Shown: piece after piece, positions 6,009 through 26,556 of the stretch
How the letters are laid out: every line of letters starts with the position of its first letter
How positions within the stretch are numbered: the stretch's first letter is position 1
Source of the DNA: Gammaproteobacteria bacterium
Lineage (GTDB): Bacteria; Pseudomonadota; Gammaproteobacteria; Eutrophobiales; Eutrophobiaceae
NCBI GenBank assembly: GCA_012103475.1
Contig: WLWS01000002.1
Coordinates: 618,081-682,080 of the forward strand
Direction of reading: 5' to 3'
DNA: 64,000 nt
Program-made: the position numbers and the translations under genes
Notes under the pieces: model-generated
What the model saw: the letters and a program-made list of their open reading frames with translations, nothing else
The model's database searches: none
Told to the model about the DNA's origin: nothing

Positions 6009-6029
6009 TAGAAAGGCGAGAATATTACT

Positions 6030-8917: not shown

Positions 8918-10549
8918 ATGCAGGGTTTAATTATGGATGTCCCCCTGACCATAACGTCGATTATGCAACATGCAGATTGTAACCATGGCGATCAGGAAAT
9001 AGTTTCGATAACGACTGACAATCCTCGGCATCGTTATACTTATGCGGAAGCTTTTCGCCGTACTCGTAAACTGGCAAATGCATTGAGTGAATACGGTATA
9101 AAGCCCTCAGATCGTATTGGCACTCTGGCCTGGAACGACTACAGGCATTTTGAACTGTATTTCGGAGTTGCCGGTATTGGGGCAATAACGCATACCATTA
9201 ACCCCAGACTTTTCCCCGAGCAGATAATTTACATAATCAATCACGCTGAAGATCGCCTAATTTTTGTTGATCCCTTTATTCTGCCTACTCTGGAAGCTAT
9301 TGCTGATCAGCTGATCCCTGTTGAAGCCTTTATCGTATTAACAGACGATGAAAATCTACCTTCATCGACACTCAAAAACATCATGAGTTACGAACATTTT
9401 ATCGGAACCTGTAAGGATGAATATTCCTGGCCAGATTTGGATGAGCGCAGTGCCAGTAGTCTGTGCTACACATCGGGGACGACCGGCAACCCGAAAGGTG
9501 TTCTTTATAGTCACAGGGCGAATGTCCTGCATTCTTATGCTTCCAATACCCCGGATGTCTTCAATTTTTCGACGGGTGATGCCGCAATGCCTGTTGTGCC
9601 AATGTTCCACGTCAATGCCTGGGGCATTCCCTATGCCAGTCCGATGGTCGGCGTAAAACTGGTTTTCCCGGGGCCTAAAATGGGCGACGGTGCCTCACTA
9701 CAGGCTCTAATTGAAGAAGAAAAGGTTACGTTTAGTGCTGGTGTCCCTACTGTGTGGCTGGCATTGCTAAATTATCTGAACGAATCGGGTAAATCTGTCG
9801 ATTCCTTAAAAAGAGTGATTATCGGTGGAGCAGCGTGTCCGGAGATGGTGATGCGTCAGTTTCTGGATAACTACGGAGTACATGTTCATCATGCCTGGGG
9901 AATGACCGAAACAAGCCCTCTTGGGACAGTCAACACCTTGAAAGCCCATATGGAAGATTTGCCGGATACGGAGCTGTATCGCATGAAGTTAAAACAGGGG
10001 AGAGCCTTGTATGGCATAGAAATGAAGATAGTCGATGATGATAATATTGAGCTAGCACGTGATGGAAAATCCTCTGGATTGTTGAAAGTAAGGGGGCCGT
10101 GGGTCTGCAGCGACTATTTCAAAATGGAAGGCAAGAATGATGTGCATGATCAGGATGGCTGGTTTGCGACCGGAGACGTCGCAACAATCGATTCCGATGG
10201 CTATATGCAGATTACCGATCGTTCAAAAGATGTGATCAAATCCGGGGGAGAGTGGATTAGCTCTATGGACCTCGAAAACGCAGCAGTTGGCCATCCGGAC
10301 GTGGTGGAGGCCGCCGTTATAGGGATATCTCATCCGAAATGGTCAGAGAGGCCTCTTCTGGTTATAGTCCGTAATCCAAACTCTGATTTGCAGGCAGAAG
10401 AGATAATTGACTGGCTCAAAGACAAAGTGGCTAAATGGTGGCTGCCAGACGCCGTTGAATTTGTTGATGAAATCCCTCATACCGCTACCGGAAAAATTCT
10501 GAAACTTGAATTGAGAAAACAATTTTCAGACTTTACATTCGATATATAA
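8918..10549 (+). CDS. AMP-dependent acyl-CoA synthetase (fatty-acid--CoA ligase family)
   Basis: 543 aa. AMP-binding motif [19 protein letters not shown], and a C-terminal GKILK. AGGAGA Shine-Dalgarno 7 nt before the ATG. Confidence 0.85.
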
Positions 10550-10600
10550 AATATAGAAAGTACTTTATCTAAATAACATAATATATTGTTATATATGAAA

Positions 10601-11026
10601 TTAAAGGTTTTTTAATTGTTCTCTGCATGACGTTTCAAAAGCATCCAGTTCAGTCATAGTCAACTTCAAATCGTCAAGTTGTTGTTCCAGGCTTTGCCGC
10701 CTTTGTCTGGCTTTGACAAGAGCTACCTCCAGTTGAGCCTTTTCTCCCGGCTCAGAATCGTACAAATTCAACATATCGGCTATATCAGCCAGAGTAAAAC
10801 CCAATCGTTTACCTCTGAGAATCAGTTTCAATCGGGTGTAGTCTCGACCGGAATAAATCCTCTGGCGGCCAATTCGTTCAGGGCTGATTAGATGCTCATC
10901 TTCATAGAATCTGATAGCTCTTGTCGTTATGCCAAACTCTTTGGCTAATTCGGAGATCGTATAAGTCAGATCTTGGGTTTCTCCGTCATTTGCAATTTCA
11001 GGTTTTACAGGATTCAGTTTGAGCAT
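10601..11026 (-). CDS. MerR-family transcriptional regulator (LiuR-like)
   Basis: HTH YTISELAKEFGITTRAIRFYEDEHLI plus a C-terminal coiled coil. I prefer the ATG at 11026 (MLKLNPV...). The 25 extra codons in the track ORF are encoded by the palindrome/promoter region. Confidence 0.8.
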   Translation of the reverse strand: MLKLNPVKPEIANDGETQDLTYTISELAKEFGITTRAIRFYEDEHLISPERIGRQRIYSGRDYTRLKLILRGKRLGFTLADIADMLNLYDSEPGEKAQLEVALVKARQRRQSLEQQLDDLKLTMTELDAFETSCREQLKNL

Positions 11027-11033
11027 AATATGA

Positions 11034-11055
11034 TTGACGTTTACGTAAACGTCAA
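11034..11055. promoter_or_regulatory. 22-bp perfect palindrome TTGACGTTTACGTAAACGTCAA; candidate operator overlapping the icmF promoter
   Basis: Read directly and self-complementary over all 22 nt. Its left arm TTGACG (11034-11039) is followed after 16 nt by TATAAT (11056-11061), giving a near-consensus sigma70 promoter facing icmF. Confidence 0.55.
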
Positions 11056-11103
11056 TATAATAACCTAGTCTGAAACATTTGCAAATACTTCCGGAGAGCA
11101 ATT

Positions 11104-14100
11104 ATGTCGGCAACCTTATCAGTGCAGCCAAGTTCACCATTTGCCAGTGAGCAAAAAACCGAAAATATCAGGTTCATAACAGCAGCCAGTCTCTTTGATG
11201 GACATGATGCTGCAATCAATATTATGCGCAGGATACTGCAAGCATCTGGTGCAGAGGTCATACACCTGGCTCACAACCGTTCAGTCTCTGAAGTTATCGA
11301 CGCCGCCTTGCAGGAAGACGTACAGGGAATCGCCATTAGTTCTTATCAGGGTGGTCATATGGAGTATTTCAAGTACATGATAGATATGCTGCGAGAAAGT
11401 GGGGCCGCGCATATTAAGGTTTTCGGTGGTGGGGGAGGAGTCATCGTTCCAACCGAAATCGAGGAACTGCACAATTATGGGGTGACGAAAATATTTTCTC
11501 CGAATGACGGCCAGAAATTAGGACTTCAGGGTATGATTGATTCAATGCTGGAGCAGTGTTCTTTTGATTCTGATCTGCTTGTGCCTAAAACACTCAAAGA
11601 ACTAGGTTCGGGAGACAGATGTACCCTTGCTCGTGAAATAAGTGCTCTGGAAAATGATCATGTTGTTCAAACTGTGCGTGACGAAATCAGTAAAAGTGTA
11701 ACAGAATCAAGCAAAAAAACGCCTGTTTTAGGGATTACCGGCACCGGCGGGGCAGGCAAATCATCGCTTACTGACGAAATCATTCGACGCTTTCGAATTG
11801 ACGCTGAAGATCAGCTCAGAATTGCAATACTCGCTATAGACCCAACACGACGCAAAACCGGTGGGGCATTACTCGGTGATCGTATTCGAATGAACGCGAT
11901 CTATCATGAGAACATTTTTATGCGTTCGCTGGCAACGCGTGATTCAGTTTCGGAAGTTCCACCTTATCTACCAGACGTAATCAATGCCTGCAAGCTCTCT
12001 GGCTTTGATTTGATAATAGTAGAGACACCGGGTATTGGTCAGGGCGATGCGGGTATTGTCCCGTTTGTCGATACTTCATTATACGTAATGACACCTGAAT
12101 TCGGAGCGGCAAGTCAATTAGAGAAAATTGATATGCTTGATTTTGCCGATGTAATTGCGATCAACAAGTTTGACCGGAAAGGAGGAGAAGATGCTTTACG
12201 AGATGTAAGTAAACAGTTGCAGAGAAATCGTATGGCTTTTGAGCAATCCGTCGAAGAAATGCCGGTTTTTGGCACTATTGCGTCTAAATTTAATGATGAT
12301 GGCGTAACGGCCTTATATCAGGAAACACTCAGAACGCTACAATCCAAAGGACTTAAAGATTTTGATAACATACTACCCGTCCAGAGCGTAAAAACTTCCA
12401 GCGAAACCACGATTATTGTTCCTGCCGCAAGACAGCGTTATTTGGCGGAAATTGCCAGCTGCGTACGCGATTATCACGTCACTGTTAAAGAACAAGTGGT
12501 ATTTGCTAGAGAACGGCAGCAATTACAGGAAAGCCGGAGAATGCTGGCAAGCGAATCGAGTACGATAATCGATGAACTAGATAAGCTTATTGAAAAACGC
12601 TCGAATCAACTGGATTCTCGTGCCAGTAAACTTCTTGAAAACTGGCCACAGCAAAAAAAGGATTATAGTGGAGAGTTTTTTTTCAGCCAGAGTCGCGACA
12701 AAAAAGTCCGAACAAATTTGATAACGACGACTCTTTCGGGGACCAAAATCCCCAGAGTGATTTTGCCTGAGTATGAGGATGATGGAGAAATCTTGAAGTG
12801 GCTATTACTGGAAAACGTGCCTGGACGATTTCCTTTTACAGCTGGCGTATTTCCCTTTAAGCGAGAAGGTGAAGATCCGACACGCATGTTTGCCGGCGAA
12901 GGCGATCCCTTCCGTACGAATAAACGCTTTAAAAAATTATCCGAACATTCCAGTGCTAAACGACTGTCAACGGCATTTGATTCTGTAACACTCTATGGTT
13001 TCGATCCAGATGAACGTCCTGATATCTACGGCAAGGTAGGCAATGCCGGGGTCTCGATAGCAACGCTGGACGATATGAAAGCACTTTATGATGGCTTCGA
13101 TCTCTGTTACCCGGCAACATCTGTTTCGATGACGATAAATGGTCCGGCTCCGACCATACTGGCAATGTATCTCAATACTGCCATCGATCAACAAGTCGAA
13201 AAATTCATAGAAAAAAATGAATCAGAACCATCGGAAACTGAGCTTAAAGAAATCAGAGATTTTGCCTTAAGGAATGTTCGAGGAACGGTACAGGCTGATA
13301 TTTTAAAAGAAGATCAGGGGCAGAATACATGCATCTTTTCAACTGAATTCAGTCTGAAAATGATGGGCGATATCCAGCAGTATTTTATTGATGAGCAAAT
13401 CAGAAACTTTTATTCAGTTTCAATCTCCGGATATCACATTGCAGAGGCGGGGGCCAACCCAATCTCGCAATTGGCGTTTACGCTGGCTAATGGCTTTACT
13501 TTTGTCGAAGCTTATCTGGCCCGAGGTATGGATATTAATGATTTCGCTCCTAATCTGTCGTTCTTTTTTTCCAATGGTATGGATCCTGAGTACACAGTTC
13601 TTGGGCGCGTGGCGCGGCGCATCTGGTCGACTAGCATGCGATTTAAGTATGGTGCCAATGAAAGAAGCCAGAAATTGAAATACCACATACAAACATCCGG
13701 ACGGTCGCTGCATGCACAGGAAATGGCGTTTAACGATATTCGCACAACACTGCAAGCTTTGATCGCGATATATGATAATTGCAATAGCCTTCATACTAAT
13801 GCCTATGATGAAGCCATTACTACTCCAACTGAAGAATCTGTTCGTCGGGCGATGGCTATACAATTAGTTATAAATAAGGAATGGGGGCTTACCAAGAATG
13901 AAAACTCCAATCAAGGGGCTTTTATTATTGAAGAATTGACCAAGCTTGTTGAAGAGGCAGTATTGCAGGAATTTGAGAGGATATCTGAACGAGGAGGCGT
14001 TTTAGGCGCAATGGAGACCGGCTATCAGCGTGGCAAAATCCAGGATGAGTCGATGCTTTACGAACACAAAAAACACGACGGCAGCCTACCTGTTATTGGT

Positions 14101-14376
14101 GTGAATACTTTTCTTAATCCAGCTGAGCCTGAAAAATTCGAAATTGAACTGGCGCGTTCAACAGATTCCGAAAAACAAAGCCAGATTAAACGACTAGAAC
14201 AATTTAAAGATAAACATTCTGAATCATCTGTATCTGCGTTAGGTAAACTGCGTCAGGCAGCCATAAGTAATGATAATATTTTTGACGAATTAATGAACGC
14301 AGTACGCTGTTGCAGTCTGGGACAGATCACAGATTTGTTTTTTGAAATAGGCGGACAATATCGCCGAAATATGTGA
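11104..14376 (+). CDS. icmF: Fused isobutyryl-CoA mutase IcmF (B12-binding domain, MeaB-like G-protein, mutase catalytic domain)
   Basis: 1090 aa. N-terminal B12 domain ([10 protein letters not shown]), central P-loop GTGGAGKSS with INKFDRKG, and a C-terminal methylmalonyl-CoA-mutase-like barrel. Length and domain order match IcmF. Confidence 0.9.
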
Positions 14377-14391: not shown

Positions 14392-15576
14392 TTATTTTAC
14401 CAGCGAACCGAGATCGGCGAAGGCAGCAATAATCTTCTCTATTTGCTCGTCTGTGTGAGCAGCACTAACACTGCACCTGACCAGGCATTTTTTTCCAGGC
14501 GCTGCAGGAGGAAATACAAGGTTCACATAAACCCCGTGTTCCAGCAGGCCACGCCAGAAAGCAAGAGCTTGTTCTTTGGTATCCAGCATTACAGCAACAA
14601 CTGTGCTGATTTCAGGTCCTAGTTCATAATTCAGTTCGCTCAAACCCTCATACAGTTTTTGAGCATTGTTCCATAATTTCTTGCGTAGATGCTTTCCATC
14701 TCTAAGTATAGGCAGAGCCGCTCGCGTCGATGCAATTACCGAGGGTGAGGGGGATGCTGTAAAGACATAGGGTCTGCTGGCATAGCGTAGAAAATCAAGT
14801 TCAGGATGATTACTTGCACAATATCCACCTATGCTACCAAGACTTTTACTAAAGGTCCCAACCACGAAATCCACTTCATTCAGAACCCCACATTCTTCTA
14901 TGAGTCCCTGACCAGTCTCACCAAGCACACCCAACGAATGAGCCTCGTCAACCACAAGCAAACTGGAATATTTTTTCCTTACCTCTATTATCTCTTTTAA
15001 CGGAGCTCGATCACCGAGCATACTGTAAATTCCTTCAATAATGATGAGGGCATTGTTGGCGCGCTCGCCAAGGCGGGCAAGTCTTTTATCAAGATCTTCC
15101 GCGTTATTGTGGCGAAAACGGACAACATCCGCACCGCTTAGTTTACAACCGTCATAGATACTCGCGTGACAGTCAGAATCAATAACGATAACATCCCCAG
15201 CCTGCGTCAAACCTGAAATTACTGCGAGGTTAGCCTGATAACCTGTGGTAAATACAATGGCAGAACGCATCTGGTAAAACTCGGCCAGTTCTTTTTCAAG
15301 AGCCCGGTGTCCTGCGAAACTTCCGTTAGCCATTCGTGAGCCAGTGGTTCCCGTTCCCTGCTCATCAATAGCTTTGTGGGCAGCCTGCAGACATTCTGCA
15401 TTAAAAGTTAACCCTAGATAATTATTGGTACCGGCAAGTATGATTCGTCGCCCATCAATGCGAGCTTCTGTAGGAGAGTAAACTTCTTCTATGGGTGTGC
15501 CAAATGGATCAAAGCCGACTGATAACAACGCCTCTCTATCACTTGCCAGTGAGGAAAACTTATCGAAAAGGCTCAT
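14392..15576 (-). CDS. PLP-dependent alpha-oxoamine synthase, serine-palmitoyltransferase-like
   Basis: 394 aa. PLP-lysine region GTFSKSLGSIGGY and DEAHSLGVLGETGQG resemble bacterial SPT (GTFSKS.G..GG, DEAHS.G) more than BioF or Kbl. ATGA overlap with the upstream ACP gene. Confidence 0.85.
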   Translation of the reverse strand: MSLFDKFSSLASDREALLSVGFDPFGTPIEEVYSPTEARIDGRRIILAGTNNYLGLTFNAECLQAAHKAIDEQGTGTTGSRMANGSFAGHRALEKELAEFYQMRSAIVFTTGYQANLAVISGLTQAGDVIVIDSDCHASIYDGCKLSGADVVRFRHNNAEDLDKRLARLGERANNALIIIEGIYSMLGDRAPLKEIIEVRKKYSSLLVVDEAHSLGVLGETGQGLIEECGVLNEVDFVVGTFSKSLGSIGGYCASNHPELDFLRYASRPYVFTASPSPSVIASTRAALPILRDGKHLRKKLWNNAQKLYEGLSELNYELGPEISTVVAVMLDTKEQALAFWRGLLEHGVYVNLVFPPAAPGKKCLVRCSVSAAHTDEQIEKIIAAFADLGSLVK

Positions 15577-15827
15577 TCTGCTTTTGGTCCGAGTTCATGA
15601 ATTCGTTTGGCCATATCTGCGACTGTGCGGACATCAGCTAGCACATTCATAGGTATAGAAATATCAAATTCATCTTCAACTTCGAGCAGAAGATCCAATA
15701 CCTTAAAAGAGTCAAGGCCGAGACCATCAACCAGCTCGGTTGACTCATCAAATTCGGCATTGAGCTCGGCGACAGTTTCAAGTTGCTTGTTTAAGCGTCG
15801 AAGAACTTCATCATAACTTGCAGACAT
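15573..15827 (-). CDS. Dedicated acyl carrier protein
   Basis: 84 aa, acidic, with phosphopantetheine site LGLDSFKVLDLL. Translationally coupled to the SPT-like gene. Confidence 0.85.
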   Translation of the reverse strand: MSASYDEVLRRLNKQLETVAELNAEFDESTELVDGLGLDSFKVLDLLLEVEDEFDISIPMNVLADVRTVADMAKRIHELGPKAE

Positions 15828-15843
15828 ACAGTATTTTTCTTTT

Positions 15844-16761
15844 CTATAATTGCAATAAATCAGGTGTATTCATGGCATCCGCTAATGTTATTGTGGGCGA
15901 CCAGCCCAGTGTGTTTGTCAGTGGGTGATTGTCACACACCCAGTTTAAATGAGTAATTTCCCTGACTTTACCCGGAGTCAGCATCGGTGAGTAACCGAGC
16001 AGTCTGGACATCTTTAAGTTAATTTTCGCGAATACCTCTAACAGTGGAACAGGAATAGGAATTCTGACCACTGATTTCCCCCAGACCTGATTTGTTAATT
16101 GAATCAGGGTCTCCCAATTATAACCATTCAGACTTCCATCATCCAATTCATAAATTCCTCCTGGGAAAGATTTCTGTTCGAGCCACATTCTAATAGCCAC
16201 GACTAAATCATCTATATGCAGCAAACTGAATTGCGATTGCGTATCCGGGGCAGGCAAAAAACCAGCTTTTAGTGATTTCAGTAAAGGTTTTATTTCTTTA
16301 TCCCCGGGACCATATATGGCAGTCGGCCGAAAAATTGTGGTCAAAACATTATTCTTTCGGGTAATCAATTCCGCCTCTGCCAGTCTTTTGCTTTTTGCAT
16401 ACCAGGAAAGTTGTGGCTCTCTTGCCGCGAGTGAAGATATGTGCAGAAGACGAATACGGGTGTTCTTAGATTGACAGGCGTTTAACAAATTAATACTGCC
16501 TGTGTTGTTGATTGAAACGAATTCCTTCAGTGAACTACCACGTACCGCCCCGGCACAATGAATGACGGTATCGACATTTTCTACGAGAGCATTTAATTGG
16601 GGTAAAGAGTGGAGGTCTCCGACTATCCAGTGAAGATTTTCTGTATCTTGCTGTTGTTTTCTACTAAGGGCTTTTACCCGAAATCCATGCTGAAGTAGGT
16701 CAGCGAGAATGGTTTTGCCTATGAATCCCGTGGCTCCGGTAAGTGCCACATATCCGGGCAT
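15844..16761 (-). CDS. NAD(P)-dependent epimerase/dehydratase-family reductase (extended SDR; CerR-like candidate keto-reductase)
   Basis: 305 aa with an N-terminal Rossmann motif TGATGFIGK. It sits between the FAAL and ACP genes. Confidence 0.8.
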   Translation of the reverse strand: MPGYVALTGATGFIGKTILADLLQHGFRVKALSRKQQQDTENLHWIVGDLHSLPQLNALVENVDTVIHCAGAVRGSSLKEFVSINNTGSINLLNACQSKNTRIRLLHISSLAAREPQLSWYAKSKRLAEAELITRKNNVLTTIFRPTAIYGPGDKEIKPLLKSLKAGFLPAPDTQSQFSLLHIDDLVVAIRMWLEQKSFPGGIYELDDGSLNGYNWETLIQLTNQVWGKSVVRIPIPVPLLEVFAKINLKMSRLLGYSPMLTPGKVREITHLNWVCDNHPLTNTLGWSPTITLADAMNTPDLLQL

Positions 16762-16765
16762 GTGC

Positions 16766-18523
16766 TCAGGAACTAACCAAGCTCAGCTTGTGGTTTGCTT
16801 CCTGATTCCAGTCCGCTCTTTCCATAAAGCCCTTTCGTGCGGCTACCCGTGAGAGCTTACCTGAGGATGTTCTTGGCAGTGTATGTTGCTTAACGAGTTC
16901 GACAACACAGTGTATACCAAAGCTTTCATAAACAAGTCTCTGCAATATGGAAATCAACGATTGTCTTTCAGAGGTTTTTGAAATTCTGCACTCGACGACC
17001 AGAACGACAGTTTGTTCTTCTTCTGTATCTTCTATTCCAAAAGCAGAGGCATCGCCCATTCGAATCTCGGGTTGCTGTTCTGCAAGTTCTTCAAGATCCT
17101 GAGCTCTGATATTGCGTCCATTAACGATAATTACGTCTTTTCGGCGTCCGCTTAAATAGAGATTTTCTTTGAAGATGTAGCCCAGATCACCAGTATCCAG
17201 CCATCCGTCTGCGCAAAGTACGCTATCTGTGGCTTCCTGATTGTTGAGATATCCTTCCATCAGACTCGGCCCACGCATCAGCACTCGTCCAATACGTAGA
17301 TCAGGTTGCAGTTCACCTGCATCGTTAACAATTTTGATTTCATGTTCAGGAAGCGCTTTACCGCAATTAACAATAGAGTTAATTTTTCTATTGTCAGATT
17401 GCACTCGTACAGCAACGCCTCGTTCTGCCAGAGCAAGTGCATCAATTACCATGACATCAAGACCTTCGCCAAGCGGAGAGAACGAGGCTGCAAGTGATGC
17501 CTCCGCAAGACCATAGCAAGGCAAAAAGGCCTTATCACTAAAATCTGCTGGTTTCAGGACAGAAGCAAAGTTATCAAGAATGCTGGGGCGAATCATTTCA
17601 GCACCAACACCGGCGACACGCCAACAACTAAGATCCAATTCGGCAAAGTCAGACTCTCTAACACGACGAGCACACAGTTCGTAGCCAAATGGCGGGCTGA
17701 AAGCGATGGTACATCGATTACGACTGATTAACCTGAGCCACTGCAAGGGTCGGATCGCGAAATCTCGTGTACGGATATAATCGACGGTCAACTGCGATAC
17801 GATTGGCCCTAAAACGAAGCCAACCAGACCCATATCGTGATAGAAGGGCAACCATGAAGCACATCTATCCCCGTCTTGCACTTCCAGGCCGCTACGAACA
17901 ATACCCTGCAAGTTACTCATAATAGCCCGTTCGCTGATAACTACACCTTGCGGGAATCGGGTACTACCAGAGGTAAACTGTAAATAGGCAGGCTCGTCAG
18001 TGGAGTTCACAGTAAACTCGACGTCCGCTTTTTCGAGTTCTTCTAATTGTCTTGCAGTACCAACCCATTTGATGTGATCTACATCTGCAGCAGCTTCCTG
18101 AAGAAAACCCTCGAATTCTTCCGGTGCGATTGCAATTGATGCTTCACCGCCGCGAAGTAAGCCGGTTAATTGTTGTACATAAATTTTATGACTGCCTAAA
18201 TTGACCGGAACAGGCATCGCGTATGGTAATAAGCCTGCGTAGCGGCAGGCAAAAAACAATACAATAAAATCGGCTTCTGTATCTGCAATTAAGGCCACAC
18301 GTTCGCCTTTTGTAAGACCTAATTTTAAAAGTCTTTGTGCAGAATCTTGAGCCCTTTGCTGAAGTTTTTTATAGGTGAGTACGTCTCTAAGCTTTCCCCG
18401 TGCATCAAAAAAATTGCAACCGGTTACACCTGAGGCCGCGTAATCTAAAGCTTCAGTGAGCGTATCGAAATCTGCTAATCGCCTCGGCAGAGTATTTATA
18501 GTTTTTGTTACGTCTTCAATCAC
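16766..18523 (-). CDS. Fatty acyl-AMP ligase / acyl-ACP synthetase
   Basis: 585 aa with FTSGSTRFPQGVVISE (a FAAL-type variant of the AMP-binding motif), GWLDTGDLG and a GTG start. First gene of the four-gene operon. Confidence 0.85.
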   Translation of the reverse strand: MIEDVTKTINTLPRRLADFDTLTEALDYAASGVTGCNFFDARGKLRDVLTYKKLQQRAQDSAQRLLKLGLTKGERVALIADTEADFIVLFFACRYAGLLPYAMPVPVNLGSHKIYVQQLTGLLRGGEASIAIAPEEFEGFLQEAAADVDHIKWVGTARQLEELEKADVEFTVNSTDEPAYLQFTSGSTRFPQGVVISERAIMSNLQGIVRSGLEVQDGDRCASWLPFYHDMGLVGFVLGPIVSQLTVDYIRTRDFAIRPLQWLRLISRNRCTIAFSPPFGYELCARRVRESDFAELDLSCWRVAGVGAEMIRPSILDNFASVLKPADFSDKAFLPCYGLAEASLAASFSPLGEGLDVMVIDALALAERGVAVRVQSDNRKINSIVNCGKALPEHEIKIVNDAGELQPDLRIGRVLMRGPSLMEGYLNNQEATDSVLCADGWLDTGDLGYIFKENLYLSGRRKDVIIVNGRNIRAQDLEELAEQQPEIRMGDASAFGIEDTEEEQTVVLVVECRISKTSERQSLISILQRLVYESFGIHCVVELVKQHTLPRTSSGKLSRVAARKGFMERADWNQEANHKLSLVSS

Positions 18524-18752
18524 GGCCTTAATAACTCCGGACCAGATAAGAGTTCAAAATAGTGTGTATTCCTAATCCACATGAAACCCTTAGACCCAGT
18601 CTATTCTATAAATTTAAATTATCCTTCGCTTGAAAAATCCGCTGACCACAGGCAGTGGTCGAGCTCGCTTTCCCCCCCGGGAGGCGATCGCGACGCATCC
18701 TACACAATATCCAGCAAAAATGCATCAAAATCATGAAAATACCTGTTTTTCG

Positions 18753-19214
18753 TCATTTCCAGTTTGCAGGCAAAAAATCAGTAATCTTTTGATTCATTGC
18801 CTCACTTGTCTCATTTTTGCAGGCAAGGTCCGGAGGACCCGGCCAGGCTTTGTCTTCAAACTCAACCCCTTCAAAAACTTTTTTGTCTGCGTACCTCGGG
18901 ATAACATGAAAATGGACATCCGGATCGACCATCATTAGCATCAAGTAGTTCAATTTGTCGTAGTCGAATGTCTTTTTCAAACAAGTTTCAATATCAACCG
19001 TTACCTGTCCAAGTTCAGCAAAGCTGGCTGCACTTAAATCAGAGAAGGCTTTTACAGGCTCCAAAGCCGCTAAAACCAAGGCACCCAGAGTCGCTTGTTG
19101 AGGTCTTAACATGACAAGCCAGTGCTGATAGTGGTAAATACAGCTATCTGGCGCACCAAACTTCAACATTGTTGCGTTCAATGCTTGCGTGTCAAGATTA
19201 AGATTATCTGCCAT
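18753..19214 (-). CDS. HIT-family nucleotide hydrolase/transferase
   Basis: 153 aa. The histidine-triad region reads DVHFHVIPR: the first His is replaced by Asp, and the nucleophile-position His is retained. Confidence 0.75.
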   Translation of the reverse strand: MADNLNLDTQALNATMLKFGAPDSCIYHYQHWLVMLRPQQATLGALVLAALEPVKAFSDLSAASFAELGQVTVDIETCLKKTFDYDKLNYLMLMMVDPDVHFHVIPRYADKKVFEGVEFEDKAWPGPPDLACKNETSEAMNQKITDFLPANWK

Positions 19215-19454
19215 CTATATGAATAATATAATAAAAAAAATGGATTGCACTCAAATATTTTAAACACCTTTTAGCCTGCATTGCGGCGGAAACTTCATCC
19301 GTTCATTTGTCTTGAACCCGATTACCCTGGAACTGTGCTAACGTCGCTATTGTTCAGCGAGCCTGACATCGAGTCAGGGTTGGATAATATCTTTGTGGTA
19401 AAGTGTGATGCTTCGTCGGTAATATTGATAAATATAATAAGAACAAGGACTTAA

Positions 19455-20306
19455 GTGAATAGTAAAATGAACACTGGGGTTGACGAACAGAAATTTGTAG
19501 CCATCGTATTGGCGGGCGATCGTAGTAATGCTGACCCGGTTGCAGCTCATTCCGGGACAAGTTGTAAGGCGGTGGCCGATATATACGGAAAACCGATGGT
19601 GACTCGAGTGCTCGATGCTCTCCAGGCAAGTGGCAGAGTTAAATCGATAATTCTGTGCGGTCCAGCTCAGACTGGGCTGGACGAGTGCCCCGAGTTACTC
19701 AATCGTATAGAAACAGACGGTATTCAATGGCTTCGGAATTCGGAATCCCCGAGTCGCAGTGTCGAAACGGCGCTCGAGCTTGTCGATGAGTCAGAACCGG
19801 TTTTTCTCACGACTGCCGATCATGCTTTGTTGTCGGCTGATATTGTCAGGTATTTCTTAAGTGAAGCTCTTGATAATCAAGTGGATTTTAACGTCGGGCT
19901 GGTTGATTACTCTACAGTACAGAGCGCCTACCCGGAGGTAAAACGTACTGTCATCAAGCTTAAAGAAAAAGGAGTTTGCGGTTGTAACCTGTTTGCCATA
20001 ATGACTCTTGAGGGACGGAAACTAGTCTCGTTCTGGCGCAATGTGGAACAATCTCGTAAAAAGCCCGCAAAAATGCTTGCAGGCGTGCTGGGTGTAGGTG
20101 GTGTCTTGTCTTATCTGTTGCATAGACTGACTATTGAAGGTGCGCTTGAAAAAGTCTCGAGTAGACTGGGTGTCAAGGTAAAGCCCGTGATTCTGCCCTT
20201 TGCCCGGGCCGGAATTGATGTTGATACCGTCAAAGACAAACTTCTGATAGAAAAAATACTCGCTAATGACTCAGTGACAGTTTCAAGTGAAAAACCTGCT
20301 AACTAG
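19455..20306 (+). CDS. MobA-like (NTP_transf_3-type) nucleotidyltransferase with a C-terminal extension
   Basis: 283 aa. FVAIVLAGDRS...GKPMV pattern. AAGGA lies 5 nt upstream of the GTG at 19455; an alternative ATG is at 19467. Confidence 0.65.
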   Translation: MNSKMNTGVDEQKFVAIVLAGDRSNADPVAAHSGTSCKAVADIYGKPMVTRVLDALQASGRVKSIILCGPAQTGLDECPELLNRIETDGIQWLRNSESPSRSVETALELVDESEPVFLTTADHALLSADIVRYFLSEALDNQVDFNVGLVDYSTVQSAYPEVKRTVIKLKEKGVCGCNLFAIMTLEGRKLVSFWRNVEQSRKKPAKMLAGVLGVGGVLSYLLHRLTIEGALEKVSSRLGVKVKPVILPFARAGIDVDTVKDKLLIEKILANDSVTVSSEKPAN

Positions 20307-21040
20307 CTAATATTTGAAGGGGCGAGAATTTCCTGAGCGGATTCCAAATCATGGATGAAGTCAATTTCTGCCCAGCGATGCCCGGATATTGAGCAAGACG
20401 TGACTTTTCCATCTCGTGCCATAGCATCGACAACTGACAGAAACCAGGACTTTAAGCCTGAGGGTTTACGCATAGCATTTTCGACCGAATTTCTAAATTG
20501 GCGTGGGCCGTCACCACGGAAATAGAGCATGCCGATCGATTCCGCGTGAGTTTGCTCTGGACTGAGGATTTTGCTGACCCCTTTGACTTGCCTGTCTTCT
20601 AATGTGACTTTCATATCATCTTCATCGTACTTTTCCTTGAAATCTATCGTCAGGGTTACCGGGGCAGACTCTGATTTTAAAACATGTTCCAATAAAGATG
20701 TTTCATACACGGTGTCGCCATTAATTAGGAGAAAATCCTCATTCATCTCCTGGCGAGCAAGCCAGCAACTTGCCAGATTGTCTGAAACATTGAAGAAAGG
20801 GTTAAAAACAAATCCTATTTGAGGTTTATCCGCATAGTTTGAATCGAGTAAGTTCTCGACTTGTTCACTATGAAATCCGGTAATAATGCTGATTTCTGTA
20901 ACATTACAGGCAAGAAGCGCATCCAATTGCCACTGCAGCACTGATTTGCCTGCAATTTCCAACATGCATTTCGGACAGTTTTCGGTCAGAGGTAAAAGCC
21001 TGCGCCCTTGCCCTGCGCTAAGTATTATCGCTTTAGTCAT
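20303..21040 (-). CDS. Sugar/alcohol-phosphate nucleotidyltransferase (LicC/IPCT-like cytidylyltransferase fold)
   Basis: 245 aa. N-terminal AIILSAGQGRRLLPLT...PKCML signature. Its 3' end overlaps the convergent gene by 4 nt. Confidence 0.8.
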   Translation of the reverse strand: MTKAIILSAGQGRRLLPLTENCPKCMLEIAGKSVLQWQLDALLACNVTEISIITGFHSEQVENLLDSNYADKPQIGFVFNPFFNVSDNLASCWLARQEMNEDFLLINGDTVYETSLLEHVLKSESAPVTLTIDFKEKYDEDDMKVTLEDRQVKGVSKILSPEQTHAESIGMLYFRGDGPRQFRNSVENAMRKPSGLKSWFLSVVDAMARDGKVTSCSISGHRWAEIDFIHDLESAQEILAPSNIS

Positions 21041-21170: not shown

Positions 21171-22244
21171 ATGACCAAGATAGAACGTTACATATTCCTT
21201 GAGGTACTTAAGCCTCTTGCCGCAGTCCTAGGAATTCTGGTTGGATTATTTGCCTGTTTTAGCAGCGCTCGCTATCTGGCTGAAGCAATAACGGAAACTC
21301 TTGGTTTGGCGCTTATGCTCAAGCTGGTGTTTTTGAAAACAGTCATTGCACTTGAAGTTCTGGTTCCGGTGGCGCTCTATGTCTCAATTATTATCGGTCT
21401 TGGACGTATGCATCGTGATCAGGAAATAATTGCCATGCGTGCAGCTGGCATTCGTGGCACCCGGATAATCCGGGCTATCCTCTGGGTCGCGATTCCTGTA
21501 GGACTAATTGTTGGCTTATTGTCCGTGATAGGCAGGCCCCTGGCTTATGCCGATAGTTATTTACTGGACGCCAGAGCCAATGCGGAATTAAATACGGATA
21601 GATTCCAGGCCGGTCGTTTCTACGGAAATGAGGACAGCGGCAGAGTAGTCTACATTAACAAAAAGAACGAATCTTCAGGGCAGATGAGTGAGATATTTCA
21701 TTACATTGACAAGCACGATGCGAAGGAGATTATCGTTTCAACTCGTGCTACCCAACAAGCTGCGCAAGACGGGCTTCGCAATGAACTTCATCTCTTTGAT
21801 GGCACCATCCACAGGTTGATGTACGGAGAAGAAAAGGATGAAGTGATTACTTTTGAAAAACTGGTTTTGTATATCGACAATGCCGAAGAGGATATTGGTT
21901 ATAAAAGAAAAGCCGCCGCAACCGTCGACTTGATCCATTCGGAAGAAGCCAATGATGTGGCGGAATTGCAATGGCGTCTGTCAAGGCCCTTAGCTACGCT
22001 CTTACTAGCTCTGATAGCTGTGCCACTAAGCAAATCTTCTCCTCGACAGGGCCGGAACGAGAAAATATTCACCGCAGCGATGATATTTGCTCTCTATTAC
22101 AATATAAGCGGGCTTGCTCGCACCTGGGTGGAGCAGGGAGTAGTAGGGAGTTTTCCGGGAATTTGGTGGCTGCAAGTAGTACTTGTTGTTCTTGTCGCGA
22201 TAATGTTACTGCCTGAATTCAGAACTGGGAGACGTGTCCCATGA
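21171..22244 (+). CDS. lptF: LPS export ABC permease LptF
   Basis: 357 aa. MTKIERYIFLEVLKP... N-terminus and YjgP/YjgQ-type topology (3 TM, periplasmic domain, 3 TM). ATGA coupling to lptG. Confidence 0.85.
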   Translation: MTKIERYIFLEVLKPLAAVLGILVGLFACFSSARYLAEAITETLGLALMLKLVFLKTVIALEVLVPVALYVSIIIGLGRMHRDQEIIAMRAAGIRGTRIIRAILWVAIPVGLIVGLLSVIGRPLAYADSYLLDARANAELNTDRFQAGRFYGNEDSGRVVYINKKNESSGQMSEIFHYIDKHDAKEIIVSTRATQQAAQDGLRNELHLFDGTIHRLMYGEEKDEVITFEKLVLYIDNAEEDIGYKRKAAATVDLIHSEEANDVAELQWRLSRPLATLLLALIAVPLSKSSPRQGRNEKIFTAAMIFALYYNISGLARTWVEQGVVGSFPGIWWLQVVLVVLVAIMLLPEFRTGRRVP

Positions 22245-23305
22245 CTCTCCTGGAAAATTATATTGTCCGCCAAATTGGAGCAGGGCTCGCCATATCTGCA
22301 GCGGTTTTAATACCTTTGTTCAGTTTTCTTGACCTTATTGAACAGCTCGATGATGTCGGAGAAGGCTTCTATCGAACTAGAGATGCCTTTATTTATGTGA
22401 TCTACCTTCTCCCAAGACGATTTATTGAATTGGCGCCTTTTATTGCATTATTGGGAACCGTGATCGGTCTTGGAAGGTTGGCTGTTAATCTGGAGTTAAT
22501 TACCATGCGTGCGGCTGGTCTGTCACCCATGCGAATTAGTCTGGTTGTGCTCAAAGTGGGTTTTTTCCTACTCATTTTATTGACTGTGCTGGAACAATAT
22601 GTCGCACCAAAATACCAGCAAAAAGCGATATCTCATCGTGCTGAAGCACTGGCGCAAAGTGCAGAGTTAGGAAGTGATCTCGGCACCTGGACTCGCGATA
22701 AGAGTCAGGTTTTACGAATTGGAGAGAGTGCGCCGGGAAGTCTGATGCGTGATATTGAGATAATGACCTTTGATCAAGATGGATCTTTGAGGGAACACCT
22801 AAATGCGGAATACGCTGAAATAGTTACCGCAAGTGAATGGGAGCTCTCAAACGTCACTCGCAGAAAATTTTCCAAAAGAAGTCTCGAGACCAGCCATTTT
22901 GAGAATATTCTCTGGAGACCTTTTCTTAATTCTGAGCAGATGGCGACTTTAAACAGACCAGCTGAAAGTTTGTCACCGGTGGAGCTATATCAATACGTTA
23001 GCTATTTGAAAAAAACCGGACAGAAGTCCGATGCTTATGAACTGGCTCTTTGGCGTAAATTCGGCGGCGGACTGGTCACCATTGCCATGCTCTTACTTTC
23101 TGTACCCTTCGTATTCGGTTCGGTGCGAGGTGGCATTGCTAACAGACTGGTCCTGGCAGGAATTACCGGGATTTGCGTTTATTTGCTTGACCAGATTGCA
23201 GCAAACGTTGGCTTACTACTGGATCTTAGCTTTCCTCTTGTTGCCCTTGCGCCAGGATTGATCCTGATCTGGATAGCGGTGGCGTGGCTACAACGTATCG
23301 CCTAG
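22241..23305 (+). CDS. lptG: LPS export ABC permease LptG
   Basis: 354 aa. LENYIVRQI..., LELITMRAAGLSPMRI, and the same topology as LptF. Confidence 0.85.
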   Translation: MTLLENYIVRQIGAGLAISAAVLIPLFSFLDLIEQLDDVGEGFYRTRDAFIYVIYLLPRRFIELAPFIALLGTVIGLGRLAVNLELITMRAAGLSPMRISLVVLKVGFFLLILLTVLEQYVAPKYQQKAISHRAEALAQSAELGSDLGTWTRDKSQVLRIGESAPGSLMRDIEIMTFDQDGSLREHLNAEYAEIVTASEWELSNVTRRKFSKRSLETSHFENILWRPFLNSEQMATLNRPAESLSPVELYQYVSYLKKTGQKSDAYELALWRKFGGGLVTIAMLLLSVPFVFGSVRGGIANRLVLAGITGICVYLLDQIAANVGLLLDLSFPLVALAPGLILIWIAVAWLQRIA

Positions 23306-23327: not shown

Positions 23328-24320
23328 TCAGGCGGCCGGAAGATTAAGTTCAAATTCTTTAAGCACAGAATATGATTCTGCCTCGATTTCCAATCGGCGC
23401 GACTGAACTCGCAGGCTCCACCCTTCAGGAATTCTTTCAATTTCATATAGATTATAACCGGATCGTTTACTCGTTGAAGTTGAGAGAACTGAGGCAGAAG
23501 CAGCCCCAATCACAGGTATTTTCAATTTATCACTCTGCAGAAAATCCCAAACCGGATAGTGGCCATGTCCATGAACAATCAACTCCGCGCCATGGGAGAC
23601 AATTGATTGTCGAAATTCATGAGCATCTCTGAGTCTTTTTCTAAACTTATTACTAGTCTGCAAAGGACCGTGATGAAGCATCACAATTCTGAACAGGCCC
23701 ATTTTTTTTGTTTTCACCAGTAATTGCTCAAGGTCCTGAATTTGTTTTTGGCCCAACTCACCGGTAGCAAAAAAAGGCGAAGTTGGCAGTGCTGTGGACA
23801 GACCAATTATTGCCAGCGGTCCACGTTGTCTAAAGCTGGGGAAAAGCGGGGGCTTATGATTGTCAGAATTGACACTGTCACTTGCTATATAGTCTGACCA
23901 CAGGCCAAAAGTCCGGCTTATATCATCTTTTGTGTAGTAATCGTGATTTCCGGGAATAAGCGAGATATTTTCCGCTGTGCCAAGATCCGACAACCAGCTT
24001 CTGACCTGTCGACATTCTGCAGCAGTTCCGATGTGAGTAAGATCTCCACTGATGAGCAAATGCCCAAGCTCATTGGAACTGAGATCGTTAAGTAACTTGT
24101 CTAGAATATCCAGACGTTGAATATGTCGGCGCGAAAACCTCCAGGACAAATAACCCAGTATTCGTTTGCTCAGTAACTGCTGCCAGCTTACACCGCTCAG
24201 ATCACTTAAATGCGGATCAGAAATATGGGCTATACGGACGGGGCCGACGCCATTATTAGCAGATGGGGGTAAAAATTTCATCATGCCTGTATCATATCGT
24301 CCGAATTTACCAATAGCCAC
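23328..24320 (-). CDS. Calcineurin-like metallophosphoesterase
   Basis: 330 aa. Motifs ISDPH, GDLTH, GNHDY, MLHH and GHGH. The track start at 24320 is GTG; an ATG at 24284 (MMKFLPP) is a plausible alternative. Confidence 0.8.
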   Translation of the reverse strand: MAIGKFGRYDTGMMKFLPPSANNGVGPVRIAHISDPHLSDLSGVSWQQLLSKRILGYLSWRFSRRHIQRLDILDKLLNDLSSNELGHLLISGDLTHIGTAAECRQVRSWLSDLGTAENISLIPGNHDYYTKDDISRTFGLWSDYIASDSVNSDNHKPPLFPSFRQRGPLAIIGLSTALPTSPFFATGELGQKQIQDLEQLLVKTKKMGLFRIVMLHHGPLQTSNKFRKRLRDAHEFRQSIVSHGAELIVHGHGHYPVWDFLQSDKLKIPVIGAASASVLSTSTSKRSGYNLYEIERIPEGWSLRVQSRRLEIEAESYSVLKEFELNLPAA

Positions 24321-24352: not shown

Positions 24353-25561
24353 ATGAATACATTATATGTTTACCTGCTGAAAGATACGGAGACGGTTTTG
24401 TGGGGTTTGAGTGGGAAATCCCGACTCGTTCGCATGCTCGAATCAAAAGCAGGGATGGTTCTTGTAGAGTCCCTGGATGAGATTCCGGATGAATCCTGTG
24501 TTCTATTGTTGCTCAGTGATTACCTGTATGACCCGCGTATTTTGAGCAATTTGATGTCTGGTTCTGAGCAACTTGCCCTTAAGGCAAGTACTGAAGAAAA
24601 CATTGTGGCGGCAAAGGTTGTTGTAATTAATGCCCGCCAGGCCAGTCTGGAGTTGTCAGGAAAATCGGAATTCAGTTTGCTTTCTGAATTACCGTCTGTA
24701 CTGCCTGAAGAACTTGTTAAAGCATATGATGCGAAGTTACTTAAATACGATCCCCCAGAAATATTAGCAATCAATGAACAAAACAAAACTCAGCTCGAAA
24801 ATGAATTATTCAATGGTTCTTACAAGGGTATCACCGATATCGTTACCAAATGGCTTTGGCCCTTACCGGCAAAGGCAGCTGTCAAATTCTGTGTCAAACA
24901 GGGTCTTTCTGCAAATCAGGTAACATTATTCAGTTTTGTTTTGGCGCTTCTGGCAGGTTTCGCTTTTGCTTATGGATTTTTCATTTCCGGCCTGATGATG
25001 GGTTGGTTAATGACTTTCCTGGATACTGTGGATGGTAAATTGGCTCGAGTGACTGTCAGTTCAAGCAAAATCGGCGATATACTTGATCATGGACTCGACC
25101 TCGTTCATCCACCACTATGGTATCTGGCCTGGGCCCTTGGAATAGCAGGTGTCTGGATGTCACCGACTCTGGTGATGCCTATGTTCTGGATTATTCTACT
25201 GGCCTACATTGGTGGTCGTTTTTGCGAAGGCGCTTTTGATCTCTGGATAGCACCTTTTCGTTTATTCCTCTGGCAACCATTTGATTCATACAATCGTCTG
25301 ATCACAGCCCGACGCAACCCTAACATGATTTTATTAACAGCCTCATTATTTTTTGACCGCCCGGATCTTGGACTTTACTCAGTTGCAGCCTGGCACGTTT
25401 TCTCCACAATAATTCTTTTCATCAGAGTTATTATGGCTATGAAAGAGAAAAAACGGGTGGGTGAACTGGAAACATGGCTCAACACTATTGACCCGGTAAA
25501 TGATCTCGGCCGTCTTGAAGTTCGCCTGTTTACGCGGCTTTCCAAATCCAGTCTGGTGTAA
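24353..25561 (+). CDS. CDP-alcohol phosphatidyltransferase with an N-terminal extension of about 150 aa
   Basis: 402 aa. The family motif D-G-x2-A-R-x8-G-x3-D-x3-D is seen as DTVDGKLARVTVSSSKIGDILDHGLDLVHP, with multiple TM helices after residue 170. Confidence 0.8.
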   Translation: MNTLYVYLLKDTETVLWGLSGKSRLVRMLESKAGMVLVESLDEIPDESCVLLLLSDYLYDPRILSNLMSGSEQLALKASTEENIVAAKVVVINARQASLELSGKSEFSLLSELPSVLPEELVKAYDAKLLKYDPPEILAINEQNKTQLENELFNGSYKGITDIVTKWLWPLPAKAAVKFCVKQGLSANQVTLFSFVLALLAGFAFAYGFFISGLMMGWLMTFLDTVDGKLARVTVSSSKIGDILDHGLDLVHPPLWYLAWALGIAGVWMSPTLVMPMFWIILLAYIGGRFCEGAFDLWIAPFRLFLWQPFDSYNRLITARRNPNMILLTASLFFDRPDLGLYSVAAWHVFSTIILFIRVIMAMKEKKRVGELETWLNTIDPVNDLGRLEVRLFTRLSKSSLV

Positions 25562-25566
25562 ATAGT

Positions 25567-26556
25567 ATGACTGAGTATACGCAACAGCGATTCCGTAAAA
25601 TCGGAATTCTGTGCAATCCGAAAGCGGGCAGGGTCAAAAACAAAACCGGAGAGATAAGAGCCCAATCAGAATCGCTTCCCGGTGTCGCTTATCGCGAAGC
25701 GCGAGTCCCTGAAGAATTTGCAATAGTGATTAAGGAATTCGTTGCGTTAGAAATTGATTTGTTTGTAATTATTGCCGGTGACGGTACTATTCACGCGGTA
25801 CTGACACAAATTTTCAACGCGCACCTTTTTCAAACCACCCCTGTCTTGTCATTTGTTCCTGCGGGAACAACGAATATGACAGCACTCGATAGTAAGATGA
25901 ATGGCAAGCCCGAATTAGTTTTGGCCAGATTAATTCAACAGTTAAAAGAAGGTAGTCAGCCTCAGATAAAAACGCAGAAACTAGTCAAAGTGCAATGTGG
26001 TAAAACAGAAAGCCAGTACGGCTTTTTCCTCGGGATCGGTGTAATCGCAGAGGCGGTAGCTTATTTTCAGAACAATATTAAAAAAACCGGGTTGACAGGC
26101 GAGGGGGCTTCGGCAATTGTTTTTATTCGTTTTCTGTTAATATTGGTTTTCAATCGACGTCAAATAAACCAATCAATAATCGAGCTTCACTCGGATGATT
26201 TCCAATTCAATCAAGGTCCCTGTCTTGTCTTGCTCATTAGTTCTTTACACAGACTTTTGTTCGGAATGAGACCTTATTGGGGGTCTGAAACTGGGGCACT
26301 TCATATGACCCTTGTCAGTGAACCACCACGAAGATTATGGCGTTCGTTGTTTGCCTTATTGAATGGCAAAGGACATCAACTATCTGAAGAAGATGGCTAT
26401 TCGAGTCACAATGTGAACAAAGTGTCTATTAAGATGAAAGGTAAATACGTTATTGATGGAGAGATATATTCGGTATCACCCGACGCAATGGGGATTGAAG
26501 TAAGTGCCGATACCTCTGTGTCAATTTTACAGCCTGAGGAGCTCCTCCGTGCCTGA
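25567..26556 (+). CDS. Lipid kinase of the DAGK catalytic / LCB5 family (diacylglycerol, sphingosine or ceramide kinase-like)
   Basis: 329 aa. Motifs ILCNPKAGR, VIIAGDGTIHAVL and PAGTTNMTA. Confidence 0.8.
   Translation: MTEYTQQRFRKIGILCNPKAGRVKNKTGEIRAQSESLPGVAYREARVPEEFAIVIKEFVALEIDLFVIIAGDGTIHAVLTQIFNAHLFQTTPVLSFVPAGTTNMTALDSKMNGKPELVLARLIQQLKEGSQPQIKTQKLVKVQCGKTESQYGFFLGIGVIAEAVAYFQNNIKKTGLTGEGASAIVFIRFLLILVFNRRQINQSIIELHSDDFQFNQGPCLVLLISSLHRLLFGMRPYWGSETGALHMTLVSEPPRRLWRSLFALLNGKGHQLSEEDGYSSHNVNKVSIKMKGKYVIDGEIYSVSPDAMGIEVSADTSVSILQPEELLRA

Follow-up and report, generated by a model that had tools for sequence, protein, structure and literature searches.

In alpha-, beta-, and gammaproteobacteria, the gene encoding serine palmitoyltransferase (SPT) co-occurs with genes for AcpR, a specialized acyl carrier protein (ACP), and for AasR, an acyl-ACP synthetase (Padilla-Gomez et al. 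2022, PMC9386255). AcpR is the sole acylation target of AasR, and the SPTs of Caulobacter crescentus, of Escherichia coli BL21(DE3), and of Sphingomonas wittichii have a preference for acyl-AcpR, seen in assays with L-[14C]serine (PMC9386255). The order aasR-epi(cerR)-acpR-spt has been published for E. coli BL21 (ECD_02851 to ECD_02854) and Nitrosomonas eutropha (Neut_0458 to Neut_0461), and the E. coli AasR, AcpR, and Spt proteins have been characterized biochemically (PMC9386255). We analyzed a stretch of 64,000 nucleotides (here called the window) of contig WLWS01000002.1, from the gammaproteobacterial assembly GCA_012103475.1. Four minus-strand genes in it, at positions 14392 to 18523, very probably form this known operon, the de novo long-chain-base module of the proteobacterial sphingolipid pathway. 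A preliminary description of the stretch had presented them as a cassette resembling the bacterial ceramide-backbone genes but lacking a ceramide synthase. The gene for the bacterial ceramide synthase bCerS, an N-acyltransferase (cerS, also yghO or aca), is indeed absent from the operon, but this is no peculiarity of it. In every described case, cerS forms a transcription unit of its own (Olea-Ozuna et al., PMC11324152); the absence of a ceramide synthase from the four-gene operon is thus the rule and not a variant. Sequence comparison points instead to one unusual feature: cerS, which adjoins the operon in nearly all close relatives, is gone from this locus. The operon type itself is already known and experimentally characterized. 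That cerS has been lost next to a module which selection still maintains is a curiosity of modest weight.

The operon starts with aasR (16766 to 18523, minus strand; 585 amino acids [aa], GTG start), which encodes a predicted specialized acyl-ACP synthetase of the fatty acyl-AMP ligase (FAAL) type. It continues on the same strand with cerR, or epi (15844 to 16761; 305 aa), for an NAD(P)-dependent extended short-chain dehydrogenase/reductase (SDR) and putative 3-keto reductase of the ceramide pathway; acpR (15573 to 15827; 84 aa), for a dedicated ACP; and spt (14392 to 15576; 394 aa), for the SPT, a pyridoxal phosphate (PLP)-dependent α-oxoamine synthase. The gaps are 4 nucleotides (nt) between aasR and cerR and 16 nt between cerR and acpR, and the acpR stop overlaps the spt start by 4 nt (ATGA). 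From the spacing alone, translational coupling of the four genes is suggested; no strong Shine-Dalgarno motifs were visible upstream of the operon gene starts. The list of open reading frames (ORFs) and a direct reading of the sequence agree with the preliminary description on the genes and their spacing, and the motifs it had picked out are present in the translations: GTFSKSLGSIGGY and DEAHSLGVLGETGQG in the PLP enzyme, the attachment site LGLDSF in the ACP, and the FAAL-type motif FTSGSTRFPQGV in the ligase. A genome-collection scan with the window SPT returned 66 related loci (numbered with the prefix L), with which the window proteins were compared by tblastn. The same four genes stand in the same order on one strand in 28 of these loci and in E. 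coli, and because of this recurrence the arrangement is not attributed to chance.

Family models and orthology both support the earlier proposal that the four products serve ceramide-backbone synthesis in bacteria, as a FAAL-like acyl-ACP synthetase, an SDR, an ACP, and an SPT. The PLP enzyme scored 626 bits with the SPT equivalog NF047599 of NCBIfam (cutoff, 500) and stayed under the cutoffs of the models for BioF (337 bits; cutoff, 426), Kbl (328 bits; 460), 5-aminolevulinate synthase (ALAS) (242 bits; 339), and CqsA-type autoinducer synthase (221 bits; 428). Its top NCBI model carries the name SerpalmtaseBetaP, and its Pfam domain is Aminotran_1_2. The best match in the PDB was the SPT of S. 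wittichii (449 bits), with the SPT of S. paucimobilis at 413 bits; the non-SPT matches were Kbl (229 bits), cysteate-C-fatty acyltransferase (203 bits), BioF-type 8-amino-7-oxononanoate synthases (at most 174 bits), and CqsA (134 bits). The window enzyme keeps His159, Asp231, His234, the PLP lysine Lys265, and Arg390 (S. paucimobilis numbering). Taken with its identity to the E. coli enzyme, these scores and residues bear out its earlier placement in the SPT clade and not with BioF, Kbl, or CqsA.

AasR scored 831 bits with the fatty acyl-AMP ligase model NF006624 (cutoff, 600) and has the Pfam domain AMP-binding. CerR matched Epimerase, 3Beta_HSD, and NAD_binding_4 in Pfam and has the Rossmann motif GATGFIG at residue 9 and YAKSK at residue 121; as in its homologues, the protein opens with the Rossmann motif, which leaves no space for a signal peptide. 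AcpR has a PP-binding domain (E = 8e-11), and in an alignment with the AcpR homologues of E. coli and Caulobacter, the LGLDSF serine falls on their conserved serine. Sequence identities to the E. coli proteins are 48% for AasR (over 559 aa), 43% for Epi, 46% for AcpR, and 57% for Spt; the corresponding values for Caulobacter-species homologues are 46 to 47%, 32 to 35%, 34 to 35%, and 54 to 55%. The window spt gene has a match in 3,527 of 5,426 complete E. coli genomes, which RefSeq labels serine palmitoyltransferase in the genomes listed. By sequence and orthology, the four genes, and the locus to which they belong, are assigned with high confidence.

The preliminary description had further held that the amino acid substrate of the PLP enzyme cannot be read from the sequence. 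Specificity is indeed uncertain from sequence, but serine is better supported than was allowed, because the enzyme is close to the SPTs of E. coli (57% identity) and of a Caulobacter species (55%), and L-serine was the substrate in published assays of the E. coli and C. crescentus enzymes (PMC9386255). If it were instead another α-oxoamine synthase, acting on glycine, alanine, or cysteate, 1-deoxy bases or sulfonolipid-type products would result. Besides the general uncertainty, one residue speaks for such an enzyme and against an SPT: the position of S. paucimobilis Arg378, described as the serine-carboxylate-binding residue of Sphingomonas SPTs, is Phe in the window enzyme (...NLVFPPAAP...). 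We rejected this exchange as a sign of an altered substrate. Leu stands at this position in the SPT of E. coli and in the one examined from the genus Caulobacter, and since the E. coli and C. crescentus enzymes have been assayed, Arg378 is not family defining. Across the sequences examined, Arg was seen in both Sphingomonas structures and in two other alphaproteobacterial loci, L029 (a Sphingomonadaceae metagenome-assembled genome [MAG]) and L030 (Rhodothalassium); the SPTs of E. coli, of the genus Caulobacter, and of all beta/gamma loci have Leu, Phe, or Met. With the SPT cutoff passed and those for BioF, Kbl, ALAS, and CqsA failed, the cysteate acyltransferase structure at 203 bits against 449 for SPT, 55 to 57% identity to SPTs that likewise do without Arg378, and a locus syntenic with ceramide-specific head-group genes, a substrate other than serine is highly improbable.

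The ancestral position of cerS can be read from the relatives. In L041, L018, and L002 (70 to 77% SPT identity), genes for a metallophosphoesterase, LptG2, LptF2, a nucleotidyltransferase, and an NTP_transf_3 protein (NT3) are followed by cerS and then by the divergent series of a HIT-like gene, aasR, cerR, acpR, and spt. A cerS gene of 377 to 390 aa lies between the HIT-like gene and NT3 in these three loci, in L069, and in a contig carrying the protein P0016. The last two are closer to the window (82% and 81% SPT identity, respectively, with a cerS of 387 to 390 aa) and share its outer flank of IcmF, a MerR-family regulator, and an acyl-CoA ligase. In the closest relative, L068 (GCA_025491055.1, contig JAOQFC010000433.1; 93% SPT identity), the contig ends 434 bp upstream of the HIT-like gene and holds the first 77 aa of cerS; this fragment scored 102 bits with a bCerS hidden Markov model (HMM) and is 50 to 63% identical to the bCerS N termini of L002, L016, L018, L041, and L069. 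Where the sequence of a beta/gamma-type locus extends at least 2.5 kb upstream of aasR, cerS lies within 3 kb in 18 of 19 cases. The exception is L006 (PBSN01000008.1, a MAG labeled Nitrospiraceae), which is alone among the other beta/gamma-type loci in having no cerS upstream of aasR; about 3 kb downstream of its spt stands a second spt-like gene, itself divergent (34% identity).

The window has at this site 240 bp of noncoding sequence (19215 to 19454) between the HIT-like gene and NT3, with no cerS remnant. From about 49 bp upstream of the HIT start onward, similarity to L068 is lost; the remaining ~190 bp resemble neither any locus nor another part of the window and contain no promoter or terminator signal that convincingly exceeds chance. 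As bCerS has no Pfam or NCBIfam model beyond a faint Acetyltransf_1 match, we searched by tblastn and with a home-built HMM. Eight bCerS queries against the 64-kb window by tblastn gave nothing significant (best E = 0.04), and the HMM, built from 198 sequences, gave nothing in all six frames of the window (best E = 0.4), while positive controls scored 637 and 102 bits. A Pfam scan of 50 window ORFs (nearly all of those above 150 aa) detected no GNAT or other acyltransferase. The lack of a ceramide synthase noted earlier for the operon thus extends to the whole window, and the comparison with relatives indicates a clean deletion of cerS from the position that it ancestrally occupied, with the HIT-like gene on one side and NT3, the homologue of Caulobacter CC_1153, on the other.

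Because the window derives from a metagenome, the missing cerS might be put down to an assembly artefact, that is, a collapsed or misjoined contig. This is hardly credible, since the junction is reproduced exactly, with 0 differences, by Logan contigs of three sequencing runs from two studies: a 40.6-kb contig of run X1 spans window positions 18000 to 20600, a 1,131-bp contig of X2 spans 19139 to 20269, and a 215-bp contig of X3, from a different sample and study, spans 19267 to 19481. No alternative joints were reported at the junction. A sponge-metagenome run contains 100% of the sampled window words, and runs from two further sponge samples contain part of them; the organism is a sponge-associated gammaproteobacterium known from metagenomes only. 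The cerS deletion is a stable state of this population and not an artefact.

By sequence comparison, the operon is one end of a sphingolipid locus of about 14 kb (window positions 14.4 to 28.3 kb). Homologues are present for 13 of the 14 Caulobacter genes CC_1152 to CC_1165 (CC_1152, CC_1153, and CC_1155 to CC_1165); only CC_1154, encoding bCerS, is missing. The four operon genes correspond to CC_1162 to CC_1165, for long-chain-base synthesis. By tblastn, five Caulobacter-species loci (L025 to L028 and L063) hold homologues of nearly all genes of the window locus in one region.

The genes facing the deletion site are a CC_1157 and a CC_1153 homologue. The HIT-like gene (18753 to 19214, minus strand; 153 aa), homologous to CC_1157, lies directly upstream of aasR and has a weak Pfam HIT match. 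It is the best-conserved accessory gene, with 52% identity to the Caulobacter homologue and 57 to 59% to gammaproteobacterial relatives, and in the gamma lineage it always stands directly upstream of aasR. In the literature, CC_1157 is called probably unrelated to sphingolipid synthesis (PMC11324152). As the pathway involves CDP-glycerate, the conserved position of the HIT-like gene may reflect a nucleotide-linked role. NT3 (19455 to 20306, plus strand; Pfam PF12804) is syntenic with CC_1153, which is needed for CPG2 formation (PMC11324152), and is 32 to 34% identical to Caulobacter and 40 to 47% to gammaproteobacterial homologues. A JGI metagenome protein of 651 aa (P0217) naturally joins a bCerS-like part, which matches the L041 bCerS at 59% identity and 99% query coverage, to a domain of the NTP_transf_3 family (PF12804), to which the gene just downstream of cerS in these loci also belongs. 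This fusion hints that ceramide synthase and CC_1153 are linked in function.

Beyond NT3 lie predicted head-group and export genes. The gene at 20303 to 21040 (minus strand; Pfam NTP_transferase) is 41 to 47% identical to Caulobacter-type homologues of CpgD (CC_1152/CCNA_01210), a CTP:phosphoglycerate cytidylyltransferase (PMC13228409), and the best PDB match of its product is a CTP:phosphocholine cytidylyltransferase. The pair lptF2 (21171 to 22244, plus strand; CC_1156 homologue) and lptG2 (22241 to 23305, plus strand; CC_1155 homologue) encodes predicted paralogues of the lipopolysaccharide export permease (Pfam LptF_LptG), with 312 bits each for TIGR04407 and TIGR04408 and 34 to 35% identity to the lptF/lptG pair adjacent to spt in E. 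coli. Sphingolipid export requires LptF2 and LptG2 of the sphingolipid locus, and the two are widespread in such loci of alpha- and gammaproteobacteria (2026 preprint, bioRxiv 10.64898/2026.04.12.717747). A metallophosphoesterase gene (23328 to 24320, minus strand; Pfam Metallophos) is homologous to CC_1158 and shows synteny and 34 to 37% identity with the Caulobacter homologue, and a gene for a CDP-alcohol phosphatidyltransferase-family protein (24353 to 25561, plus strand; Pfam CDP-OH_P_transf) is homologous to CC_1159 and 34 to 36% identical to the Caulobacter homologue; CC_1158 contributes to CPG2 formation in Caulobacter and CC_1159 is needed for it (PMC11324152). A gene for a Tam41/Mmp37-like protein (26504 to 27511, plus strand; weak Pfam Tam41_Mmp37 match) is 35 to 36% identical to the Caulobacter homologue and corresponds to CC_1161, required for ceramide phosphoglycerate (CPG) formation (PMC11324152). 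We equate CC_1159 with CpgA and CC_1161 with CpgC from the constant offset of 58 between CC and CCNA gene numbers.

The lipid kinase gene at 25567 to 26556 (plus strand; Pfam DAGK_cat) is homologous to CC_1160 (CpgB), the bacterial ceramide kinase (PMC11324152; PMC13228409). It is 23 to 28% identical to its syntenic counterparts in Caulobacter sp., Rhodothalassium, and others (L025, L029, L030, and L014), a weak homology that counts against the proposed reading of the locus; the assignment is weak by sequence and is backed by position. At the edge of the locus, the gene at 27533 to 28285 (plus strand) encodes an OlsC/LpxO-like dioxygenase of the Asp/Asn beta-hydroxylase family (Pfam Asp_Arg_Hydrox, E = 1.4e-54). 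This Fe/2-oxoglutarate hydroxylase scored below the cutoffs of both the OlsC model (262 bits; cutoff, 450) and the LpxO model (150 bits; 500) and is a candidate sphingolipid acyl 2-hydroxylase. Homologues of it adjoin spt loci in beta- and gammaproteobacterial MAGs (L008, L010 to L013, L016, L021, and L031). Because the operon sits with homologues of the ceramide kinase and CPG head-group genes and of lptF2/lptG2, the expected end product would be a complex phosphosphingolipid, and not the free sphingoid base that the preliminary description had envisaged.

Low ratios of nonsynonymous to synonymous substitution rates (dN/dS) against L068 point to strong purifying selection on the operon: 0.033 for aasR, 0.112 for cerR, 0.032 for acpR, and 0.037 for spt, at a dS of about 1. 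The neighboring genes for IcmF and the acyl-CoA ligase gave 0.057 and 0.043. All 14 remaining genes of the locus are intact ORFs, and the 8 for which the lengths of relatives are on record are full length. These data bear on the idea that the cerS deletion inactivated synthesis and left the other genes as relics that have not yet decayed. In its favor, cerS is missing here and still present in L068, which dates the deletion after the split of the two lineages. The dN/dS values average over both lineages, and a very recent loss of function would escape them, a caveat that counts against an active pathway. A search for RNA runs as evidence of transcription found none. Low dN/dS (0.03 to 0.11, as low as in housekeeping neighbors) and intact locus genes disfavor a decaying relic, and the arrangement persists across different sponge samples. 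A dead pathway is therefore improbable.

By orthology to assayed enzymes, the following steps can be proposed. AasR would adenylate a free fatty acid and pass the acyl group to the phosphopantetheine arm of AcpR; Spt would join acyl-AcpR with L-serine, with loss of CO2, to give 3-oxosphinganine; and CerR would reduce the 3-keto group, before or after N-acylation depending on the published model. In the model of the Klein lab, CerR acts after bCerS, in the periplasm (PMC11087976). In that of the Geiger lab, free 3-oxosphinganine is reduced first, with the argument that the periplasm lacks NADH (PMC11324152). The reduced long-chain base named as the product in the preliminary description would hence arise under the second model and not under the first, in which reduction follows N-acylation. 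The expected final product would be an anionic phosphosphingolipid of the outer membrane.

For the N-acylation step itself, we somewhat favor that another part of the genome provides it, through a relocated cerS or an analogue, because the rest of the locus is intact and the operon is under purifying selection. There is precedent for a distant cerS, as N. eutropha and the sphingomonads carry it far from spt, and a two-chain lipid fits the presence of an acyl-chain-type hydroxylase and an LptFG-type exporter. Two observations pull the other way. As the closest relative has cerS at the exact site, a relocation would have had to accompany the deletion. In addition, protein searches with the bCerS sequences of L041 and L069 listed no protein of the window contig among the best 120 of about 7 to 8 thousand matches. 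The second point is weak, because bCerS diverges fast (56% identity between L069 and L041, against 72 to 82% for SPT among the same relatives) and only the best 120 matches were listed. None of the 313 proteins retrieved over three protein searches was more than 67.5% identical to the L068 bCerS fragment, and a JGI metagenome scan with this fragment gave nothing closer than 74%.

Alternatively, N-acylation may truly have been lost, with the module, together with the kinase, head-group, and LptF2/LptG2 genes, serving to make lyso-type lipids such as sphinganine phosphate or sphinganine phosphoglycerate, or with free sphinganine as the product, in line with the preliminary description. The absence of cerS from the conserved site and the whole 64-kb window, the same junction in three runs of two studies as the mark of a stable state, the lack of a window-clade bCerS among the matches listed in two database searches, and an operon still under strong purifying selection would all be in keeping with such a loss. 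In the same direction, the DAGK_cat family includes sphingosine kinases besides ceramide kinases. A reduction of free 3-oxosphinganine by CerR, as in the Geiger-lab model (PMC11324152), would also suit such a loss. A single-chain lipid is, however, a poor building block for the outer membrane and an unlikely cargo for an LptFG-type extractor, and the OlsC/LpxO-like putative acyl-chain hydroxylase in the locus may point to an acylated product. Moreover, the absence of cerS covers the 64-kb window, which is part of a contig of at least 758 kb, and since cerS of N. eutropha and the sphingomonads normally lies far from spt, a locus without cerS need not mean a genome without it. We consider true loss possible but rather doubtful, and equally tentative is the proposal that this cerS-deleted sponge lineage makes lyso-type phosphosphingolipids or uses an N-acyltransferase unrelated to bCerS. 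N-acylation from elsewhere in the genome stays the preferred reading.

If the genome were truly without bCerS, either a second, unrelated bacterial ceramide synthase would await discovery or single-chain sphingoid lipids would be used and exported by bacteria. In both cases sphingolipid synthesis in bacteria would take a form not described before, with a bearing on the dispute over whether reduction or N-acylation comes first when bacteria make ceramide. Irrespective of this, a well-described pathway is extended to an uncultured sponge-associated gammaproteobacterium, in which the whole Caulobacter-type anionic sphingolipid locus appears conserved, export genes included.

Beyond the spt end, the operon is abutted by a block of genes for an acyl-CoA ligase, a MerR-family regulator, and the fused isobutyryl-CoA mutase IcmF (8918 to 14376). 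The ligase is MTP-CoA ligase-like, at 805 bits just under the cutoff of 822, and IcmF scored 1,928 bits; the block is conserved in L068, L069, and the P0016-carrying contig. It may supply branched-chain acyl precursors or may merely neighbor the operon. Genes for the alpha and beta subunits of a nitrile hydratase (5364 to 6698, plus strand) lie farther out and are also found in L068, the 93% relative.

Among the described systems, E. coli B/BL21(DE3) (ECD_02850 to ECD_02854) has the four genes in the same order and on one strand with tight spacing, and the E. coli locus that we fetched reads yghO on the minus strand, then FAAL, epimerase, ACP, and spt on the plus strand, and then lptG and lptF. 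As in the window, a paralogous lptF/lptG pair thus adjoins the operon. In contrast to the window, E. coli has the cerS homologue yghO divergent and upstream of aasR, and it has genes of the YtfJ, YghQ, YghR, and YghS types in place of the HIT-like gene and CpgA- to CpgD-type head-group genes. N. eutropha C91 can be likened to the window from its published description: the same four-gene operon (Neut_0458 to Neut_0461) has no adjoining ceramide synthase, and aca/cerS (Neut_1100) lies elsewhere in the genome, far from the operon (PMC9386255). The sphingolipid genes of sphingomonads are likewise scattered across the genome, with cerS far from spt (PMC9386255; PMC11324152).

The clusters of Azotobacter vinelandii and Pseudomonas luteola, compared here by their published description (PMC11324152), belong to gammaproteobacterial hosts, like the window. 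They form one contiguous region with about 13 of the 17 Caulobacter genes, without CC_1166 to CC_1168, and they have cerS and no CC_1158; the window shows the reverse, a CC_1158 homologue and no cerS. A probe with E. coli YghQ (Ec_yghQ), which matches the CC_1166 position in Caulobacter-species loci, found no homologue in the window, and CC_1167 and CC_1168 were not searched for. CC_1167 and CC_1168 (LptC2) are reported to be absent from other beta- and gammaproteobacterial clusters, and LptC2 to be restricted to Caulobacter (PMC11324152; bioRxiv 10.64898/2026.04.12.717747). In C. crescentus, the region CC_1152 to CC_1168 (CCNA_01210 to CCNA_01226) unites ceramide synthesis, the CPG/CPG2 head group, and LptF2/G2/C2. 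Caulobacter reportedly relies on an enzyme of the DesA family (CC_0202) encoded elsewhere in its genome (PMC11324152), whereas the window has its OlsC/LpxO-like hydroxylase within the locus. Gene order differs between the two and bCerS is absent from the window, but the homologues, at 23 to 55% identity to those of Caulobacter-species loci, point to the same predicted chemistry.

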